DNA from: Candidatus Parcubacteria bacterium
GTDB taxonomy: Bacteria; Patescibacteriota; Minisyncoccia; UBA6257; 2-01-FULL-56-20
NCBI GenBank assembly: GCA_027324805.1
Contig: DAHVRZ010000001.1
Span: forward strand, 136,254 to 200,253
DNA length: 64,000 nucleotides
Direction: 5' to 3'
The position numbers and the translations under genes are program-made. Numbering within the stretch: the stretch's first letter is position 1; each line of letters opens with the position of its first letter. Below the pieces are notes generated by a model that saw only the letters and a list, made by a program, of their open reading frames with translations, ran no database searches and was not told the origin of the DNA. Shown in pieces: positions 8,400 through 50,912 of this stretch.

Positions 8400-9683
8400 A
8401 TGTCTACGAAAAAGAAAACAGCGGCAATTGCGGGTATTATCGTCATTGTCGGGGCTAGTGCGTTCATATTCAGGGGTAGTATTGTTGCGCGCGCCGCAAC
8501 AAATCCATTTTCCACATTTTGGAACGATCTTACCCAACCCTTCACCGGGCGGACCGTCACTACGAGCGGAAACCTCGCGAACACCGGAACATCAACCCAG
8601 CTTTATGCTCCCGATGACCAATACGAGAGCGACGTGATGGCTGCAGTGAAGAGGGTGTCGCCTGCGGTCGTTTCTATCACCATCTCCGAGAACGTGCCGA
8701 TCATCGAGAACTGTCCGAACGGTTTTTCTGGCAACCTTCCGCTGGGATTCCAGCAGTTTCTCGGGAACATTCCGACCTCCACGCCGTGCAACAGCGGACA
8801 GACCCAGCTGCAGCAGGTGGGCGGCGGTTCCGGGTTCATCATCTCGCCCGACGGCCTCATTCTCACCAACAAGCACGTCGTCTCCGACACGACCGCGCAA
8901 TATTCGGTGCTCACGAATGACGGGAAGACCTATAAAGCGACCGTGCTCGCGCGCGATCCCAACCAGGACCTCGCAGTCCTCAAGATAAATGCGACCGGCC
9001 TGCCGACGGTCACGCTCGGCGATTCGAACGGACTCCAGCTTGGTCAGACGGCGATCGCCATCGGCAATGCCCTTGGCCAGTTTTCCAACACGGTCTCCGC
9101 GGGCGTGGTCTCCGGCCTCGAGCGTACGGTGACGGCATCGTCGCCCGATACGGGCGCAGAAGAGACGCTGAACGGCGTCATCCAGACCGATGCGGCCATC
9201 AATCCGGGCAATTCCGGCGGGCCGCTCGTGGATCTCCGCGGCGACGTAATCGGCATAGACACTGCCGTTGCATCGAATGCGCAGAGCATAGGCTTTGCTA
9301 TCCCGATTAACCAGGCGAAGTCGGCTATCAATTCCGTCGAATCCACGGGGCAGATCAAGGTGCCGTATCTCGGCGTGCGGTACGAGCCGGTGACGGCGAC
9401 ACTCGCATCATCGAAGAAACTCCCCGTTTCCTACGGCGCGCTTGTCTCGGCGGGGAATACCGGCAAGGCGGCGGTGGTGCCCAATTCGCCTGCTGCAGCC
9501 GCCGGGATCAAGGCAGGCGACATCATCGAGTCCGTGGACGGTACGCAGGTGAATTCCAATAATGATCTTGGTAATCTGATTGACCAGTATTCGGTGGGGG
9601 ATACGGTGACGCTTATCGTTGCGCGCGGCACCCAGATGCTCACGCTCAAAGCGACGCTCGCCGAACGGCCGGCAGGGTCATAG
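8400..9683 (+). CDS. htrA: HtrA/DegP-family serine protease with a C-terminal PDZ domain and an N-terminal TM anchor.
   Basis: Catalytic motif GNSGGPLVDLRGDVIGI, plus His/Asp regions (TNKHVV, DLAVLK). The track ORF begins with a TTG at 8382; the ATG at 8400 (MSTKKK) is preferred. Confidence 0.85.
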   Translation: MSTKKKTAAIAGIIVIVGASAFIFRGSIVARAATNPFSTFWNDLTQPFTGRTVTTSGNLANTGTSTQLYAPDDQYESDVMAAVKRVSPAVVSITISENVPIIENCPNGFSGNLPLGFQQFLGNIPTSTPCNSGQTQLQQVGGGSGFIISPDGLILTNKHVVSDTTAQYSVLTNDGKTYKATVLARDPNQDLAVLKINATGLPTVTLGDSNGLQLGQTAIAIGNALGQFSNTVSAGVVSGLERTVTASSPDTGAEETLNGVIQTDAAINPGNSGGPLVDLRGDVIGIDTAVASNAQSIGFAIPINQAKSAINSVESTGQIKVPYLGVRYEPVTATLASSKKLPVSYGALVSAGNTGKAAVVPNSPAAAAGIKAGDIIESVDGTQVNSNNDLGNLIDQYSVGDTVTLIVARGTQMLTLKATLAERPAGS

Positions 9684-9712
9684 CGCTTTTCCCGCATATA
9701 ACCTTGTTCATT

Positions 9713-9760
9713 AGCAATCTCAACTTGAGATTGACAATGCTCGTTTGCGGGGCGTATACT
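9713..9760 (+). promoter_or_regulatory. Putative clpB promoter: TTGACA at 9731-9736, an 18-nt spacer, then TATACT at 9755-9760. It overlaps an inverted repeat AGCAATCTC-N5-GAGATTGAC at 9713-9735.
   Basis: Read directly from the sequence. The inverted repeat resembles CIRCE (TTAGCA...TGCTAA flanks) but has a 5-nt spacer rather than 9. Confidence 0.4.
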
Positions 9761-9827
9761 TTCCTATAACACGTTATGCGTGCGATGAAACAATCGCCTT
9801 CGCGGAAAGGTATAATATAAGAAATAA

Positions 9828-12545
9828 ATGCCAAACTTCCATCGTTTCACCATAAAAGCGCAGGAGGCCCTGCAGAACGCCCAGGAGATCGCTGCAAAAA
9901 AGAATCATGGCGAGCTTAAATCGCTCCACCTGCTCGCCGCCCTTCTTGAGGATGAACAGTCGCTCGTCATTCCGGTGCTCGAACGTTCCGGCGTGGACAT
10001 TGACCGGCTCGACGAACAGATAGAGGAGGAGCTCGACCGCATTCCGCCCATTCTCTCGAATTCGGCGGTCGGCCAGCTATACCTTTCCCAGGAGCTGATG
10101 CGCGTACTCGATCAGGCGGCCAAGGTCGCCGCCCAACAGAAAGATGAATTCGTTTCGTGCGAACATCTTTTGCTCGCGCTCCTTGACGTTCCCGGTGCGG
10201 CCAAGTCCGTGCTCGAGAAGTTCGGCGTGCGCCGGGAGACCGCGTTCCGCGTGCTTGCCCAGCTTCGCGGCTCGGTCCGCGTGACGGACGAAACGCCGGA
10301 AAGCAAATTCCAGGTATTCGAGAAATACGCCATCAACCTCAGCGAGAAGGCAAAAGCCGGCCAATTGGATCCGGTGATCGGACGCGAGGAGGAACTTCGC
10401 CGCCTTATGCAGGTCCTTTCGCGCCGCACCAAGAACAATCCGTGCCTCATCGGCGAACCGGGCGTCGGCAAGACCGCCATCGTGGAGGGTCTCGCCCAGC
10501 GCATCGCGTCGGGCGATGTGCCGGAGCTTTTGAAAGGCAAGCAGGTCCTCATGCTCGACCTTGGATCGCTCATCGCGGGCACCAAGTTCCGCGGGGAGTT
10601 CGAGGATCGCCTGAAGGCGTTCGTGAAGGAGGTCAAGAACGCCGCCGGACAGATCATCCTCTTTATAGACGAGATCCATACGATCGTTGGCGCCGGCGCC
10701 GCCGAAGGCGCGATTGATGCTTCAAATCTGCTCAAGCCGGCCCTCGCGCGCGGCGAATTGCACGCGATCGGCGCCACCACCTTCCGCGAATACCAGAAAT
10801 ATATAGAGAAGGATCCTGCGCTCGAGCGTCGCTTCCAGCCGATCACGGTGGAGGAGCCGTCCATCGAAGATTCGATCTCCATTCTGCGCGGGCTCAAGGA
10901 GAAGTACGAAATCCATCATGGTATGCGCATCAGCGACGAGGCGATCATCGAGGCCGTGAACCTTTCGGCTCGCTATATCACCGACCGGTTCCTTCCGGAC
11001 AAGGCGGTGGACCTTATTGACGAGGCTGCGGCTGCCCGGCGGCTCGAGTCGGAGTCCCTTCCGAAGGAGATTGATAACATCCGCCGCAGCATCACGCGGC
11101 TCGAGGTTGAAAAACAGGCTCTTATGCAGGAAGGGGAGAACGGGCGCAGTGCCGAACGGCTCAAGGAGATCGATGTCCAGCTCGCCAAATGTAAGGATGA
11201 GAACGACGAGCTTTCGAGCAAGTGGCATTCCGAGAAGATCAAATTCGAGACTTTGCACCAGCTGCGGCAGAAGGTGGAGAATCTGAAGCGCGAAGCGGAG
11301 GTTGCCGAACGCGAAGGGAATCTTGAGCGGGTGGCGCAGATCATCTACGGCGAGCTTCCGGTGGCCGAGAAGGATTTTGCCATGTTCGAGAAGAAGAATT
11401 TCGGGACGCCTTCCGCCGCCGCGCGCCGCCGCGCCGCCGCGCATAAAACGGCCGCAGGCACCGATGCCGGCGAGACTCCGTCCGGCCGTTCCGCCGCGTC
11501 CGCTGACCGCTTCCTCAAGGAGGCGGTGGACAAGGAAGACGTTGCCGCGGTCGTGTCGGTATGGACCGGCATTCCCCTGAAGCGCATGCTCGAGACCGAG
11601 ACCGACAAGCTCATCCGCATCGAGGACGTGCTCCGCGAGCGCGTTATCGGGCAGGAGGAAGGCATTTCCGCCGTCGCCGCGGCATTGCGCCGCGCGCGGG
11701 CCGGCCTTTCCGATCTCAACCGCCCCATCGGTTCGTTCATGTTCCTCGGTCCCACGGGAGTCGGCAAGACCGAGCTTGCTCGCGCACTCGCCGAGTTCAT
11801 GTTCAACGACGAAAAAGCGCTCATCCGCGTGGATATGTCGGAATATATGGAGCGCCATGCGACCTCGCGCCTCATCGGTTCGCCGCCGGGCTACGTTGGC
11901 CATGAGGAGGGAGGCCAGCTCACCGAACTCATTCGCCATCGGCCGTACAGCGTCATCCTTTTCGATGAGATCGAGAAGGCGCATCCCGAGGTGTTCAATC
12001 TTCTCCTCCAGGTGCTCGATGACGGCCGCCTCACCGACAGCAAAGGAAAGACGGTGAACTTCAAGAATTCGATCATCATCATGACGTCGAACGTCGGCAG
12101 TCAGTATCTCCGCGCCATGTCGCGCATTGGGTTCAGTTCCGAAAGTTCCGGCTCGACCTCCGAAGAAGGGGATTATAAAGAGAAGGTTATGGATTCGCTC
12201 CGACAGAGCTTCCGGCCTGAGTTCCTGAACCGCATTGACGAGATCGTCGTCTTCAACCCGCTTCACCGGGCGGACATCGAGAAAATCGTGAATATCCAGC
12301 TTTCGCGCATCGAAAACCAGCTCAATGAGCGCAATATCCGCCTCGATATAGGCACCGATGCCCGTGCTTATCTTGCGAAGGAGGGTTTCAGCGCCGAATT
12401 CGGCGCCCGGCCTCTCAAGCGGCTCATCCAGAAAATGATCCTCGATCGTCTTGCCGATAAGATCATCCGCGGGGAAGTGAAAGAGGGGGGCAAGATAAAG
12501 GTGGGATTCAAGGCTGACGTGCTCACCTTCACTTCCGGAAGGTAA
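9828..12545 (+). CDS. clpB: ClpB disaggregase chaperone (AAA+, two nucleotide-binding domains, coiled-coil M domain).
   Basis: N-terminal domain repeats. NBD1 [21 protein letters not shown]2 [19 protein letters not shown], and a long coiled coil in between. 905 aa. Confidence 0.95.
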
Positions 12546-46976: not shown

Positions 46977-47516
46977 ATGAGAGTCAGGATTCTCATGAAC
47001 GACGCAGAGATCATCGCCGCAATACAGGTCGGTGATACCGAACAATTCGGTCTGCTTTATGACGCCTATTTTCAGCGTATATTCGCGTACATTTTTTATC
47101 GTACACGGAACCGCGCTGTGGCGGAGGACCTTGTAAGCACGACGTTCTTCAAGGCCGTGAACGGCATCGGGAAGTTCGATAGCCGGAAAGGGACATTTTC
47201 GGCATGGCTTTATCGGATCGCGCGCAATACGCTCTACGATCATGGCAGGCGGAAGGCGAATGTCGTTCCTATCGAATATGCCGAGAATGTTTCTTCCGGG
47301 GATAATCCCGATAAGACGGTTGCCGACAGGAGGCTCGTTGAAGAAGTGCGGGCCATACTTGCCGACCTTCCCTCGGGACAGCGCGAGATCGTTTCGATGC
47401 GCGCATGGGACGGGCTTTCATATACAGAGATCGCCGAGATCCTCGGAAAGAGCGAAGGGAGCTGCAAAATGGCATTCCATCGCGCGTCTATAAAATTCAG
47501 AACATTGCTTCCATGA
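46977..47516 (+). CDS. ECF (RpoE-like) sigma-70 family sigma factor.
   Basis: Region 2 FAYIFYRTRNRAVAEDLVSTTFFKA and region 4 LPSGQREIVSMRAWDGLSYTEIAEILG. Confidence 0.85.
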   Translation: MRVRILMNDAEIIAAIQVGDTEQFGLLYDAYFQRIFAYIFYRTRNRAVAEDLVSTTFFKAVNGIGKFDSRKGTFSAWLYRIARNTLYDHGRRKANVVPIEYAENVSSGDNPDKTVADRRLVEEVRAILADLPSGQREIVSMRAWDGLSYTEIAEILGKSEGSCKMAFHRASIKFRTLLP

Positions 47517-49042
47517 ACGAACACGATTTGGAAAAAATAATCATGCGATCAAAGCCGGACGCGGAAAGCAGGCCGGAATTCGAAACGGACCTCCGCCGCC
47601 GCCTGCTTCTCGAACTTTCTTCCGTGAAGATACGCAAATCACAACCCATATTTTCAATGACACGCACTTTTCGAATCGTTCTTGGCGGACTTGCCGTTGC
47701 GGCGGTCGCCGCTGCGGTCATAGTTCCGTTCTTTATGCATCGTCAGGGTTCCGGCACGATCGCGCTCCTTGGCACCAGTACTTCCGTTACCCAGGTGGGG
47801 GATGATGCGTTCGGGCCTTTGAACGGACTCGGTACCATCGACACCGGTGGCAATGCCGGCGGTTCCGCCAAGGAAACCGCAACTTCACCGGCATCTTCGG
47901 CGCTGGCACCCGTGGCGGCGAGCCCCATGATGTCCGTGATGGCATCAGGTGCCGAGACTTCAGGATCCGCGGTGTCCGGTTCCGGAACTGCATCGCCCGC
48001 CATTATCGTCAGGCCCATGCCTCCTCTCCGGTTTCCCGCCGTGACATACGTATATAAAGGCGATCCGATCCACCAAGACCAGAGGAAACTCAATGTACTA
48101 AAGTCCATCCCTGTTGCCCTTTCCGCCGATCAGATCACTTCCGTGCTCGCGGGGCTCGGGGGGAACGCCATGAGCATCCCATCTTTCGACGGTGCCCTGG
48201 TCACCAATGTGACACTCTCGGAGAACTCGCATTTCGGGTATACGATCAATGCCGACCTTACGGCGGGAACCTTCTCAATTTATGAAAACTATTCCGAATG
48301 GCCCCAGGATAATGGCTCGCCGCTTACCGCAACAGAAGTGCCTGCGACGGACACCATCATTGGAATAGCCGACGCCTTCCTTGCGGATCACGGCATTTCC
48401 ACAAGCACATACGCCATACCCGAGCTGACGAGACAGATAGGAATCGTCGTTCCGATCGTACGCCCGATGGCCGGTGCGGCAGCGGCAACGAGCGGCAGTT
48501 CCGCCATCGCTTCGATGCCGATGATTCCTTACCGCCCTGACTCGGTCGAAGTACTGTATCCTCTTACCGTGAACGGCATGCGCGTGTATTCATCCTCCGG
48601 CGCCCAGATCGGTCTGCAGGTGACGGTCAATCTGCGGTATGGCAAGGTGTCCGCCGTTTCCGGCCTCGCCGTCACGCAGTACCAATCGTCTGCATATGAT
48701 GCGATCACGGATTCTTCCACGATCATTTCGCTCGCCGAACATCCGTCGGTCTATCCGATCATCTATAACGGAATCATGGGAGTTTCATCCGGCGCAACCG
48801 GCGCAACCGATATCAATCTCGGCACTCCGGCGCTCGCATACGAGGAGGTGTACCAGTCGGATGGGAAAGGAGGGAGCAGCGAGTTCTTTGTTCCAGCGTA
48901 CGTTTTTCCGGAAACCACCGGTCCCAATGCCGGTACCGGCAGCGTGATCGTGCCGCTCGTCGCGTCATTCGAGCAGAACAGCAATGGCGGGGGAGTGATG
49001 AAACCCATGCCCGTACCGCTCGAAGCGCCCGCAGTGAAATAG
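47513..49042 (+). CDS. Membrane protein with a large extracytoplasmic domain; candidate anti-sigma factor partner of the ECF sigma.
   Basis: ATGA start/stop overlap with the sigma gene. A single TM helix near residue 75, then a Ser/Thr/Ala-rich region followed by a non-repetitive 300-aa domain. Confidence 0.5.
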   Translation: MNEHDLEKIIMRSKPDAESRPEFETDLRRRLLLELSSVKIRKSQPIFSMTRTFRIVLGGLAVAAVAAAVIVPFFMHRQGSGTIALLGTSTSVTQVGDDAFGPLNGLGTIDTGGNAGGSAKETATSPASSALAPVAASPMMSVMASGAETSGSAVSGSGTASPAIIVRPMPPLRFPAVTYVYKGDPIHQDQRKLNVLKSIPVALSADQITSVLAGLGGNAMSIPSFDGALVTNVTLSENSHFGYTINADLTAGTFSIYENYSEWPQDNGSPLTATEVPATDTIIGIADAFLADHGISTSTYAIPELTRQIGIVVPIVRPMAGAAAATSGSSAIASMPMIPYRPDSVEVLYPLTVNGMRVYSSSGAQIGLQVTVNLRYGKVSAVSGLAVTQYQSSAYDAITDSSTIISLAEHPSVYPIIYNGIMGVSSGATGATDINLGTPALAYEEVYQSDGKGGSSEFFVPAYVFPETTGPNAGTGSVIVPLVASFEQNSNGGGVMKPMPVPLEAPAVK

Positions 49043-49045
49043 GAG

Positions 49046-49162
49046 ACGAGAGGATGGGCGAAATCGGAATTTCGCCGGAATCGGTTCGCTCGCCGAAAAT
49101 GAAAATATGTTTTCATTTTCTCCTCACTGCCGATTCCCGAACCTTCGGTTCGATCCTCTCGT
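49046..49162 (+). other. Candidate structured RNA (tRNA-like cloverleaf).
   Basis: Folded by eye. Outer stem GACGAGAGGAT/ATCCTCTCGT (49046-55 / 49153-62). Hairpin GGCGAAAT-CGGA-ATTTCGCC (49057-76). AT-rich hairpin GAAAATGAAAA-TATG-TTTTCATTTTC (49095-120). Hairpin CGAACC-TTC-GGTTCG (49138-52). Confidence 0.3.
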
Positions 49163-49170
49163 TCCAACAG

Positions 49171-49210
49171 CTGCTAAAAAGGACACCCGAGGGTGTCCTT
49201 TTTAGCAGTA
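49171..49210. terminator. 40-bp palindrome CTGCTAAAAAGGACACCCGAGGGTGTCCTTTTTAGCAG; bidirectional terminator for the anti-sigma-like gene (+) and tRNA-Ser (-).
   Basis: Perfect inverted repeat, with the hairpin flanked by A5 and T5. Confidence 0.7.
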
Positions 49211-49211
49211 G

Positions 49212-49298
49212 CGGAGACGAGAGGATTCGAACCTCTGAGGGGATTGCTCCCCTAACTCCTTAGCACGGAGCCGCTTTCGACCGCTCAGCCACGTCTCC
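49212..49298 (-). tRNA. tRNA-Ser, anticodon GCT, with a long variable arm.
   Basis: Reverse complement GGAGACGTGGCTGAGCGGTCGAAAGCGGCTCCGTGCTAAGGAGTTAGGGGAGCAATCCCCTCAGAGGTTCGAATCCTCTCGTCTCCG. Anticodon loop GTGCTAA. Confidence 0.85.
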
Positions 49299-49418
49299 AA
49301 TTCTCACGGGTTTGAGTGTACCGCATCCGTGCGATAAATCAAATCGGCATGACCGCAATTGATATTGTTTTTTCTCTGATTTTCTGTTATAATGCGTTGG
49401 AGTTGTGAAAATCTCCTT

Positions 49419-50912
49419 ATGCATATGACAAAAGCAACCCCGAAGAAAATTTCAGGAAAAATCGAGTCTGCACAGCGCCCTCCGATCGTCGTCGTGATGG
49501 GGCACGTCGACCACGGCAAGACGACGCTCCTCGACTATATCCGCAAGGCCAATATCGCCGCGCGGGAAGCGGGCGGCATTACCCAGGCGACGGCGGCGTA
49601 CGAGATCGTGCATGGCGGGAGGAAGATAACATTCATTGATACGCCCGGACACGAGGCGTTCACGGCGATGCGTTCGCGCGGGGCGCAAGCCGCCGACCTT
49701 GCGATCCTTGTCGTTGCGGCGGATGAGGGCGTAAAGCCGCAGACAAAGGAAGCGATCAAGATCATAGAGGAATCGAAGACGCCGTTTATCGTGGCGCTCA
49801 ACAAGATCGACAAGACGGGTGGCAACATCGACAAAGCCCGTAATGATCTTATGGCCGCGGGCGTTCTTCTTGAGGGCTATGGCGGCAATGTCAGCTATCA
49901 CGGCATTTCCGCAAAGACCGGCGAAGGTGTGGGTGAGCTGCTCGACCTCATACTCCTTGCGGCCGATCTCGAAAATCTCCGGTATGATCCTGCCGCGGGA
50001 GCGACGGGATTCGTACTCGAGGCGAAGCGCGATCCGAAGCGCGGCATTGAAGCGAGCGTGATCGTGAAGGATGGCATCCTTCACCGCGGCGATCTCATTG
50101 CGACAAAAACCGCTCACGGCAAAGTGAAGATATTGGAGAATTTCCTTGGCAGAATAGCACAAGATCTCGAGCCTTCGTCCCCCGCCATCGTCATTGGTTT
50201 TGAGACCATCCCGAATGTGGGAGAGGAATTTACGGCAGGTGATGCCACAAAAGCGCCCGCCGTGAACGGTGAGGATTCCATCGGCGCATCGCCCGTCCGT
50301 CGTTTTGCCAAGCCAAAAGCGAACGCCCTCAATCTTATTCTCAAGGCCGGCGACGCCGGTTCCCTTGAAGCGCTTTCGACCGTGCTCCACGGCGTTGACC
50401 GGAAGGGAGGCAAAGAGCTGAATCTCATCGAGGGAAGCGTCGGCGACATCACGGACGGCGACGTTCGCCATGCGCAGGCCACCCAGGCCGCGATCATCGG
50501 CTTCAAAAATCGCGTCGAAAAGGGAGCGAAAGTGCTCGCGGATGCGCAAGAGATCACCGTGATCACGTCCGATATCGTTTATGATCTTGCGGATGCCGTC
50601 GAAGAGTTCTTTACGGGAACGCGGGGTCCCGCGGCGGCGGGCGAACTCGAGGTGCTTGCGCTTTTCAACCAGGAAAAACTGGAGAAGCAGCTTGTCGGCG
50701 GTCGCGTAGGGAACGGAACATTCCGCGGAAAGGCGTCGTTCGATATCGTGCGGGGACCGCTCGGCACCGCACCCCTCGGACAAGGGAAGGTGATCGGTTT
50801 ACGCGAGAGGAAGGATGAGATAACAAGCGCGGAAGCGGGCAGAGAGATCGGCGCGCTCATCGACGCGCCGGTTGCGGTGCAGGTCGGCGACCATCTTGTG
50901 ATCAGGAAATGA
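49419..50912 (+). CDS. infB: Translation initiation factor IF-2, short form lacking the long N-terminal region.
   Basis: G domain [15 protein letters not shown]...DTPGHEAF...NKID, followed by beta-barrel domains. An ATG at 49392 or 49425 is an alternative start. Confidence 0.9.

Follow-up and report, generated by a model that had tools for sequence, protein, structure and literature searches.

The window, by which we mean the whole 64-kb stretch of Candidatus Parcubacteria DNA that was analysed, contains a short structured element set between a protein gene and a tRNA gene. The local gene order is ECF sigma factor, 509-aa protein, element, palindromic terminator, tRNA-Ser(GCT), infB, and rbfA. 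The element spans ~124 nt (49042-49165) within a non-coding insert of 171 bp, and its first G doubles as the final base of the TAG stop codon of the upstream gene. No integrase or recombinase gene lies in or beside it, the neighbouring genes being those for the ECF sigma factor, the 509-aa protein, IF-2, and RbfA. The loci closest to the window all come from metagenome-assembled genomes (MAGs) of Parcubacteria/Paceibacteria (CPR). The features are as follows.

46977-47516, + strand: ECF sigma factor gene
47513-49042, + strand: gene for a 509-aa protein of unknown kind (anti-sigma-like gene)
49042-49055, + strand: L, GGAGACGAGAGGAT, matching the tRNA-Ser 3' end exactly over 14 nt in direct orientation; 5' side of the closing stem
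49045-49055 with 49153-49163: closing stem, 11 bp, outermost pair G.U
49057-64 with 49069-76: hp1, 8-bp hairpin, GGCGAAAT CGGA ATTTCGCC
49076..49138: hp2, the conserved core module, made up of P1, an internal loop, P2, and the loop TATG
49077-85 with 49129-37: P1, lower stem of hp2, GGAATCGG(T)/(G)CCGATTCC
Between P1 and P2: internal loop of hp2, in the window copy TTCGCTC(GCC) / (TCC)TCACTG
49095-105 with 49110-120: P2, upper stem of hp2, 11 bp, AT-rich, GAAAATGAAAA/TTTTCATTTTC
49138-49152: hp3, CGAACC TTC GGTTCG
49153-49165, + strand: R, ATCCTCTCGT-TCC, inverted copy of the tRNA end (13/14, one base missing); 3' strand of the closing stem
49171-49208: palindrome resembling a bidirectional intrinsic terminator, CTGCTAAAAAGGACACCC GA GGGTGTCCTTTTTAGCAG, 18 + 2 + 18 nt
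49211/12-49298, - strand: tRNA-Ser(GCT) gene (ARAGORN and Rfam), CCA not encoded; the apparent insertion target
49213-49226: G, the gene copy of GGAGACGAGAGGAT, last 14 nt before the discriminator
49392-50912, + strand: infB, encoding a short IF-2 of 506 aa

Fold of the element and its tRNA-derived ends

Folded as + strand RNA, positions 49043-49165 form a four-way junction with a minimum free energy of -58.3 kcal/mol. Dinucleotide shuffles average -34.8 ± 3.7 kcal/mol (z = -6.4), and 0 of the 200 folded as well. The - strand folds comparably (-59.4 kcal/mol, z = -6.3). The tRNA-like junction enclosing three hairpins that had been proposed by a sequence-only reading is therefore present, as are the three hairpins that it listed, with an 8-bp GC-rich stem, an 11-bp AT-rich stem, and a 6-bp stem bearing a TTC loop. 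Its dimensions require correction, from 117 nt and a 10-bp closing stem to ~124 nt and 11 bp, and the AT-rich hairpin, correctly recognized, stands on a lower stem (GGAATCGG/CCGATTCC) that had been overlooked.

The element is not a tRNA gene, as the same reading had held: ARAGORN and Rfam, the latter at gathering score and at E ≤ 10, find no tRNA or tmRNA in 49042-49165, and at the locus only tRNA-Ser(GCT) is called, with the element itself uncalled. A search of 48950-49350 against Rfam 15 families gave no meaningful match at E ≤ 10. For the internal loop of hp2, we considered K-turn, loop E, and T-loop identities, none of which fits by inspection.

The resemblance to tRNA resides in the ends of the element. 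GGAGACGAGAGGAT corresponds, in reverse complement, to T-loop positions 59-60 and the 3' strands of T-stem and acceptor, and it occurs at L and at G as an exact 14-mer 171 nt apart in direct orientation. R has two possible partners: pairing with L gives the cloverleaf, and pairing with G across the terminator gives a palindrome, I1, with 36-nt arms. Read along the + strand, the insert begins with a reverse complement of the last ~24 nt of the tRNA 3' end, split at the T-loop (GGAT^TC..CGAACC) by hp1 and hp2. Next come a TTC turn and then the T-loop and the 3' strands of T-stem and acceptor, copied in sense, after which lie the terminator and the real gene. The 5' strand of hp3, CGAACC, is thus what remains of the pseudo T-loop in reverse complement, and the 3' strand of hp3 folds back on it as a copy. 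The echo of the tRNA-Ser acceptor and T-arm described from the sequence alone is consequently stronger than had been noted, amounting to an exact 14-nt repeat plus a 13/14 inverted copy. A degenerate tRNA duplication, as had been suggested, describes the closing stem and hp3, since both are copies of the tRNA-Ser 3' end, but not hp1 and hp2, which do not derive from tRNA-Ser.

Between R and the tRNA gene lies the palindrome, in which an inner GC stem (GGACACCC GA GGGTGTCC) is followed by TTTTT on both strands, as judged by eye. It had been described as a perfect 40-bp palindrome serving as a bidirectional terminator; the palindrome is there, at 18 + 2 + 18 nt. A simple consensus terminator scanner does not report it because the T-run falls inside the extended stem.

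Related loci and the hairpin family

The synteny of tRNA-Ser (on the - strand), infB, rbfA, tRNA-Cys, and tRNA-Leu is kept in ~20 related genomes, and the element is present only in L007, plus L177 and, from the metagenome set, L087. The closest relatives, L001 and L002, whose IF-2 is 82-84% identical and whose tRNA-Ser is identical, have no element. L007 (71%) has a homologue of the element in which the repeat, GCGGAGGCGGAAGGAT, corresponds to the tRNA of that locus, and in which hp1, the hp2 tip, and hp3 are altered in compensatory fashion; the gene to its left is divergent and lies on the - strand. In L177, the left gene is 78% identical to that of the window, the element follows the same gene, and hp1 is fully compensated (GGGCACAT AAGA ATGTGCC). 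L008 and L017 display the same architecture with different interiors. Two closely related strains, L129 and L097, differ by one module, a module Y lying in the hp3 loop.

These loci also allow the empty and filled states to be compared. A native flank, ..GTGCATCGGTT(C/T)(A/G)AGAGACC-TT(T/C)C-GGCCTCGGGTTTT (also written ..GCATCGGTT.AGAGACC TT.C GGCCTCGGGTTTT), adjoins tRNA-Ser directly in L001 in a diverged form, whereas it sits after the distal repeat both in L087, which contains an hp1/hp2 cassette, and in L017, which contains another module. The empty L001 locus set against the filled L087 and L017 loci therefore shows that the cassette is an insertion, its own terminator included, with the final 15-16 nt of the tRNA present on either side of it. 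For the left flank of the window itself, no empty allele appeared among homologues of the 509-aa protein, L177 being filled and the others lying in different neighbourhoods. A bounding direct repeat of the tRNA 3' end and, at the family level, an empty site in relatives are both present, as for att-type insertions. A similar terminator lies between element and tRNA in all relatives of this kind (type A, below), and the spacers that flank it are asymmetric. When the cassettes at Ser(GCT) and Ser(GGA) and the one in L166 are compared, spacer plus terminator, CACGAGG.AT.AAAAAAGA.GGCAGAAGCC.., shows 73-82% identity. A GACACC/GGTGTC stem common to the window and L002 had suggested a terminator native to the tRNA, with the insert beyond it; this idea was dropped in favour of a cassette-borne terminator given the L001, L087, and L017 flanks and the terminator alignment. 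In L174, the interval between tRNA and cassette extends to 1.45 kb and includes two cargo genes and a decayed tRNA-end copy, which looks, from its sequence, like serial accretion.

We scanned metagenome contigs for the ends of hp2 as an exact pattern (AATCGGTTCGCTC N20-50 CTGCCGATT). The scan returned 96 stretches, with ~80 unique genuine hairpins, on Paceibacteria-like metagenome contigs. Typical of the family are P1 with AATCGG/CCGATT and a P2 that co-varies, the two being separated by a conserved internal loop (TTCGCTC / TCGCTG). This loop is retained in diverged copies as P1 co-varies, to GTCTGG/CCAGAC in L150 and GAGGGC/GCCCTC in L060, and in L156 P1 reads AAATTTGG/CCAAATTT. A covariance model of hp2 (R1, 23 bp) scores the window copy at 79.8 bits and finds no other in the 64-kb window; in 514 kb of loci not selected by the motif, it recovers L007 (60.8 bits), L060 (33.4 bits), and a truncated copy in L177 (20.5 bits). 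With one copy in 64 kb and two full copies plus one truncated in 514 kb, copy number is low. Since a second copy lies within ~10 kb in 10 of ~75 motif-selected loci, copies cluster; one contig carries paralogous copies that are ~90% alike (L098/L116), and L134 has two inverted copies.

Copies occur in three contexts. Those of type A adjoin a tRNA as in the window, type B consists of hp1 and hp2 followed by GTAG/GTAA, and type C is hp2 alone with P1 lengthened to TATAATCGG/CCGATTATA. The flanking genes are unrelated housekeeping genes, judged from their translations to include those for bL25, a Mur ligase, a PilB-like ATPase, and an S41 peptidase, and hp2 is found in all four orientation combinations with respect to them, without bias. 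At gathering score, Rfam reports only tRNAs and one 16S fragment in 26 related loci. By these comparisons, the hp1/hp2 module is a lineage-wide CPR family without a counterpart among Rfam RNA families. Because AT-rich boxes precede type-B and type-C copies, hp2 had been considered as a 5' leader that carries a -10 box; this was ruled out, as copies lie equally often at gene starts and gene ends and the consensus scan described below yields no promoters.

In 12 of the 96 stretches, the module sits at the pseudo T-loop point, 64-87 nt from a tRNA 3' end (144 nt in L156). The tRNA genes behind these loci, on the opposite strand, are Ser(GCT), Ser(CGA), Ser(GGA), Tyr(GTA), Leu(GAG), Gly(CCC), Ile(GAT), and Lys(TTT); a "Stop(tta)" call in L127 proved to be an offset artefact, the anticodon arm being the same as that of the Lys gene in L156. 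The module site is always between GGAT and TCGAACC of the pseudo T-loop, or its local variants TTGAACC and CGGACC, and the 5' strand of hp3 tracks the local T-loop, as TGAACC in L170 and as CGGACC in L117 and L173. Of the nine type-A relatives having a repeat, seven have an L identical to the local gene end over 14-17 nt. R is always an imperfect match to the local tRNA end, with 11-15 of 16 positions and single-base bulges. The repeat boundary falls after position 58, and A58 is recurrently changed to C in the pseudo T-loops, which would agree with a reverse-transcription step only if these lineages make the m1A58 modification (TrmI). L127, L156, and L173 are without the inverted copy, and there the split pseudo-copy remains colinear with the tRNA up to the anticodon loop, from which it follows that hp1 and hp2 entered pre-existing tRNA-derived DNA. 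Beyond this family, 20 of the 244 tRNA genes in the fetched loci (8%) lie within 450 nt of a 12-nt sequence that repeats their 3' end exactly, and these repeat-bearing genes are accompanied by at least three kinds of structured interior.

The fold is conserved in its parts to different degrees. RNAalifold applied to 11 type-A elements recovers the four-way junction with 45 pairs, 19 of which are changed on both sides. In a count of pairing over the type-A elements, 94.1% of cells are paired, compared with 35-54% for slid partners, and 0 of 500 shuffles did as well. One pair of hp1 shows compensatory double changes (AU 5, GC 4, CG 2), and P1 and P2 of hp2 co-vary in the family; compensatory change and homologues in other genomes, which the sequence-only reading had singled out as informative, are thus both present. 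Unlike the closing helix, hp1 and hp2 are maintained throughout the type-A members. The closing helix is weak in some (12/16 in L087, 11/16 in L139) and absent in L127, L156, and L173, where the T-stem only or nothing closes the structure.

We also considered whether mispairs reveal the strand on which the structure is selected. A first count gave 29 A.C against 7 G.U, and a model-based alignment of P2 in the window-(+) orientation gave 50 against 21, of which 18 of the 50 A.C cases fall at one pair, leaving 32 against 20. An invariant U.G stands beside P1 in the + orientation. The first count had looked decisive for the tRNA strand, but we assign the structure to neither strand, because much of the A.C excess falls at one pair and the + strand U.G is invariant. 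A free-energy difference between the strands reflects the purine-rich loop.

Origin and possible function

Comparison of the loci demonstrates the anatomy of the cassette, its membership in a family, its insertion at a tRNA end, its compensatory structure, and the same placement behind eight tRNA species, each with local tRNA repeats. Our preferred reading, to which we assign a probability of roughly 0.55, is that the element is a non-autonomous insertion cassette on the end of the tRNA-Ser gene and that its cloverleaf is a by-product. Outward from the tRNA, the cassette comprises the terminator, R, the hairpin module (hp3, hp2, hp1), and, at the far end, L, with the module placed exactly at the T-loop position of the displaced tRNA-end copy. 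The cloverleaf would then form because L and R pair around three hairpins, and would not be tRNA mimicry selected as such. Such a unit would be mobile or integrative and would depend on machinery acting in trans. Site-specific recombination somewhere between T-loop and 3' end is the likeliest route, the cassette supplying a replacement 3' end and terminator and the original end being shifted to the far side. The feature recognized may be the hairpins with their bulged imperfect arms, possibly as folded single-stranded DNA; by analogy, a folded single-strand recombination site is attractive in view of the hp2 layout and the bulged arms.

The search for a partner of such a cassette was largely negative. 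All-against-all clustering of 248 neighbouring ORFs revealed no recurrent neighbour gene family, and no integrase, transposase, or reverse transcriptase adjoins any copy. Searches by tblastn with IS608 TnpA and RAYT queries gave one weak match, a genuine Y1_Tnp ORF in L124 that is 3.3 kb away, unlinked, unique, and not flanked by copies. IMG/VR, INPHARED, and PLSDB contained no phage or plasmid carriers; three viral matches to a relaxed pattern were dismissed as chance, since they reach only 16-19 bits in GC-rich DNA. The lack of a nearby recombinase and of a phage or plasmid carrier argues against a simple integrase, as does an inverted target copy, R, that matches each local tRNA, and one recombinase would not be expected to serve eight different tRNA ends. 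A more elaborate scheme is also conceivable: in a new kind of target-templated mobile element, the hairpin module would carry copies of the last ~16 nt of the tRNA in both orientations, the folded strand would re-create the target duplex, and a trans-acting enzyme would insert it between T-loop and 3' end, so that it could be re-programmed to any tRNA. We think this scheme rather unlikely. In a variant, the elements may be expressed RNAs mounted on the acceptor/T-stem minihelix of the cognate tRNA.

The main rival to the insertion cassette is a structured small RNA gene, trans-acting or protein-binding, in which an hp1/hp2 domain would sit on an acceptor/T-stem scaffold and the closing helix would serve processing or stability, for example as a minihelix of the RNase P, RNase Z, or CCA type. 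We hold this to be a possible but tentative explanation. Low copy number, which counts against a mobile cassette, would suit an RNA gene with few copies per genome, and the upkeep of compensatory stems across distant genomes is explained no less well by long-term selection for a functional RNA than by selfish DNA. The strong conservation of the hp2 internal loop while P1, P2, and hp1 co-vary points the same way, as do the terminator downstream on the + strand, the stacking of acceptor stem on T-stem in the closing helix, and the retention of the element in L177, with its compensatory hp1, at what is apparently the same site as in the window. Against an RNA gene, consensus scanning of the window, L007, and L100 finds no sigma-70-like promoter upstream, although CPR promoters may differ from the consensus, and the helix that would cap the RNA is poor in L087 and L139 and missing from L127, L156, and L173. 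L also spans the discriminator, one further base, and the last two T-loop bases, as a DNA repeat of a gene end would, and both the free orientation of hp2 relative to its neighbours and the absence of a match in Rfam tell against this explanation.

Explanations confined to the locus fare less well. That the element is a local scar of replication or repair, in which template switching at the T-arm and terminator hairpins (of the tandem-inversion-duplication type) captured the module via GATTC/GAATC microhomology, strikes us as improbable. It would account for the alternation of the three tRNA-end copies (L in reverse complement, R in sense, and the gene in reverse complement) with junctions at hairpins, for the resemblance of P1 (GGAATCGG/CCGATTCC) to T-loop sequence, which offers microhomology, and for the general proneness of tRNA 3' ends here to repeats (20/244). 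Yet the hp3 loop, the TCAT/GCAT pseudo-T-loop, the ACGAGG spacer, and the terminator are common to cassettes at different tRNAs, and these shared non-tRNA parts imply a transferred unit rather than independent scars. The asymmetry of the spacers on either side of the terminator and the native terminator beyond the distal repeat in L087 and L017 likewise disagree with a scar.

The sequence-only reading had also entertained a cis-regulatory 3'-UTR element of the anti-sigma-like gene. A regulatory or stabilizing role in the 3' UTR of the gene at 47513-49042 would agree with an element that begins at the stop codon and ends at a + strand terminator, and with the same order of gene and element in L177, but the element tracks the tRNA and not the gene, as the divergent left neighbour in L007 illustrates. 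Homologues of the gene at 38-60% identity are followed by other genes and no element, and family members adjoin unrelated genes in every orientation; a role of this kind is thus very improbable. For incidental terminator-proximal structure or a chance repeat there is the position beside a terminator and nothing more, to be set against the fold (z = -6.4), the exact 14-mer recurring after 171 nt, ~80 homologous versions, and the covariation, which together make chance practically negligible.

CPR/Patescibacteria genomes are small, and to our knowledge almost nothing is known about their non-coding and mobile DNA. If the cassettes are mobile, they would colonize many tRNA genes without a linked integrase, and tRNA ends would be hot spots of genome change in these organisms, as judged by the 8% of tRNA genes sampled. 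If the module is expressed, hp2 with its conserved internal loop would be a candidate protein-binding RNA motif specific to CPR. In either case, such elements can mislead tRNA annotation and the calling of island boundaries in metagenome-assembled genomes.

Comparison with known systems

Integrative elements that use tRNA genes leave att repeats that run from the T-loop or anticodon loop to the tRNA 3' end, and their integrase-less remnants are CIME-like. Sublocation classes of such elements within tRNA genes were reportedly defined by Williams in 2002. The cassette resembles these elements in its direct repeat of the tRNA 3' end, which starts in the T-loop (in the anticodon loop in L127, L156, and L173) and reaches 1-2 nt past the discriminator, in the displacement of the native flank past the distal repeat, and in the serial accretion suggested by L174. 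Unlike them, it is only ~170 bp long, has no integrase nearby, carries an extra inverted copy of the target, and employs one module behind at least eight tRNA species, interrupting the repeat at the T-loop. An archaeal analogue is an integrating element that scatters tRNA fragments (PMC3293823).

With REP/BIME elements (RAYT) and the PATEs derived from IS200/IS605, the family shares small, imperfect, intergenic palindromes that are neutral in orientation and clustered, and, as in REP and PATE, structure is kept more than sequence, with no terminal inverted repeats of its own and no short target duplication at the module junctions. It differs from REP/RAYT in being low-copy and in having no GTAG 5' of the hairpin, GTAG/GTAA being found 3' in type-B copies only; it also has no linked Y1 transposase, the one ORF in L124 being unlinked, and is conserved across very divergent genomes. 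MITEs are marked by their own terminal inverted repeats, a short duplication of the target, and large numbers of near-identical copies in each genome. The inverted arms of the cassette copy the local target and not the element, and the window has one copy in 64 kb; the paralogous copies ~90% alike on one contig (L098/L116) and the inverted pair in L134 bear on the same comparison.

Integron attC sites and the attP of CTX phage are similar in form only, in having paired ends, an unpaired central spacer with conserved bases, an oddly paired second stem, and a variable tip; the single-base bulges of the R/L arms are a further attC-like detail. Integron features that the cassette lacks are RYYYAAC/GTTRRRY boxes, an IntI or Xer context, and organization into cassette arrays. 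The four-way junction, with a closing helix equivalent to the acceptor stem on the T-stem of a real tRNA, recalls the tRNA-like domain of tmRNA, viral TLS, and mascRNA. In contrast to these structures, the element has no T-loop, D-arm, or anticodon arm, is negative by ARAGORN and by the Rfam tRNA and tmRNA models, and has an acceptor-like helix that is bulged and, in relatives, dispensable.

The literature searched and Rfam yielded nothing relevant as a described equivalent of the cassette. Its parts are of known kinds, namely the tRNA-end repeats of integrated elements and small palindromic intergenic repeats. What appears to be new, as judged from the sequences compared, is their combination: a hairpin module placed at the T-loop, flanked by direct and inverted copies of the local tRNA end, with no linked enzyme and a spread across the CPR lineage.

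Repeats of tRNA 3' ends and the modules between them

In all fetched loci (L numbers; related genomes and metagenome contigs) and the window together, the flanking sequence was long enough for 244 distinct tRNA genes to be considered. An exact 12-nt direct repeat of the gene's own 3' end, comprising the 3' strand of the T-stem and the 3' strand of the acceptor stem, lies no more than 450 nt downstream of 20 of them (8%), and tRNA-Leu(TAA) carries such a repeat in six different genomes. The 3' ends of tRNA genes look like insertion hot spots in these bacteria generally.

The tRNA-end cassettes of the kind seen in the window can hold a second conserved module, Y, which fills either the loop of hp3 (the TTC-loop hairpin) or the centre of the palindrome. 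A third type of interior lies downstream of tRNA-Arg(GCG) in L053 and of tRNA-Cys in L036, with the tRNA-end repeat as its boundary.

Interior modules of the tRNA-end cassettes
Module Y, sequence: ..CTGGGCACCGCCTC(G/A)C.., then an AT-rich hairpin, AATTTTCT..GAAAATT, then ..GGCGTTCGA(A/T)TCC
Module Y, sites: L008, 2519-2717; L097, L099 and L093, right of the core hairpin hp2; L002, 5117-5370, downstream of tRNA-Leu(TAA)
Third interior type, sequence (L053, L036): ..GGGAAAGGGGTCGGGAAAACGG.., ..GTGGCGGAAA..CTAAAACCGC..GGGTTTTAG..

Loci L129 and L097 differ in the presence of module Y despite having an identical left flank, direct tRNA-end copy (L) and 8-bp hairpin hp1, and because of this difference the module looks like a recent gain or loss. 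For the third type, the pseudo T-loop reads GTTCGCTTCC in both L053 and L036, corresponding to a change of A58 to C, which also occurs in the inverted pseudo T-loops (TTCGCAT/TTCTCAT) of type-A elements, those with the module beside a tRNA as in the window.

The tRNA-Ser locus

Between tRNA-Ser and the cassette of L174 (1216-2401, locus coordinates) are genes for a 186-aa P-loop (GxxGxGKT) protein and a 197-aa protein of unknown function, along with a decayed piece resembling a tRNA 3' end (GCGGTGTGGGGAGGTTTAGAAC) that is found in L166 too. The interval has the appearance of a small islet of cargo genes.

The native flank of tRNA-Ser(GCT), left of the tRNA region, contains a conserved hairpin, GAGGCC-G(A/G)(A/G)A-GGTCTC (L001, L017, L087 and L174). 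On the strand opposite the tRNA, its loop is of the GNRA type and one of its pairs is G.T; on the tRNA strand, a T-run comes directly after the hairpin. The tRNA-Ser of the window (49211-49298, ..CGTCTCCG CTACTG) does not encode CCA; that of several relatives does (L007, ..CCTCCGCCA).

Copies of hp2 beside protein genes and other tRNA parts

Two inverted copies of hp2, ≈89% alike, lie on either side of a 216-aa gene in L134 (2775-3600). From its sequence, this gene reads as ribosomal protein bL25/Ctc, and its homologue in L111 also has an hp2 copy, 24 nt away. In L124, a 245-aa ORF (9592-10329) located 3.3 kb from an hp2 copy matches Pfam Y1_Tnp (IS200-like HUH transposase; 34.6 bits); it has no flanking hp2 copies and no homologue among the other fetched loci. 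In type-B copies, where hp1 and hp2 precede GTAG or GTAA, a short repeat, (G/A)ATTTAGA(A/G)AT(T), recurs in direct orientation on both sides of the two hairpins.

Examples of type-B copies with the short direct repeats
L110, L113, L134, L154, L158, L168

Immediately 5' of tRNA-Arg(GCG) in L060 (2150-2310) are two tandem hp2-like hairpins, the outer stems of which consist of acceptor-stem sequences of the adjoining tRNA (GTGAGGGC ... GCCCTCAT); the 3' strand of the second hairpin is the 5' end of the tRNA itself. An hp2 copy in L094 abuts a tRNA 5' half that ends in the anticodon loop, and one in L082 abuts a tRNA 3' fragment that starts at the variable region and has a complementary acceptor strand. 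Because the copies in L082 and L094 adjoin these other fragments, the module is also associated with tRNA pieces other than the T-loop.
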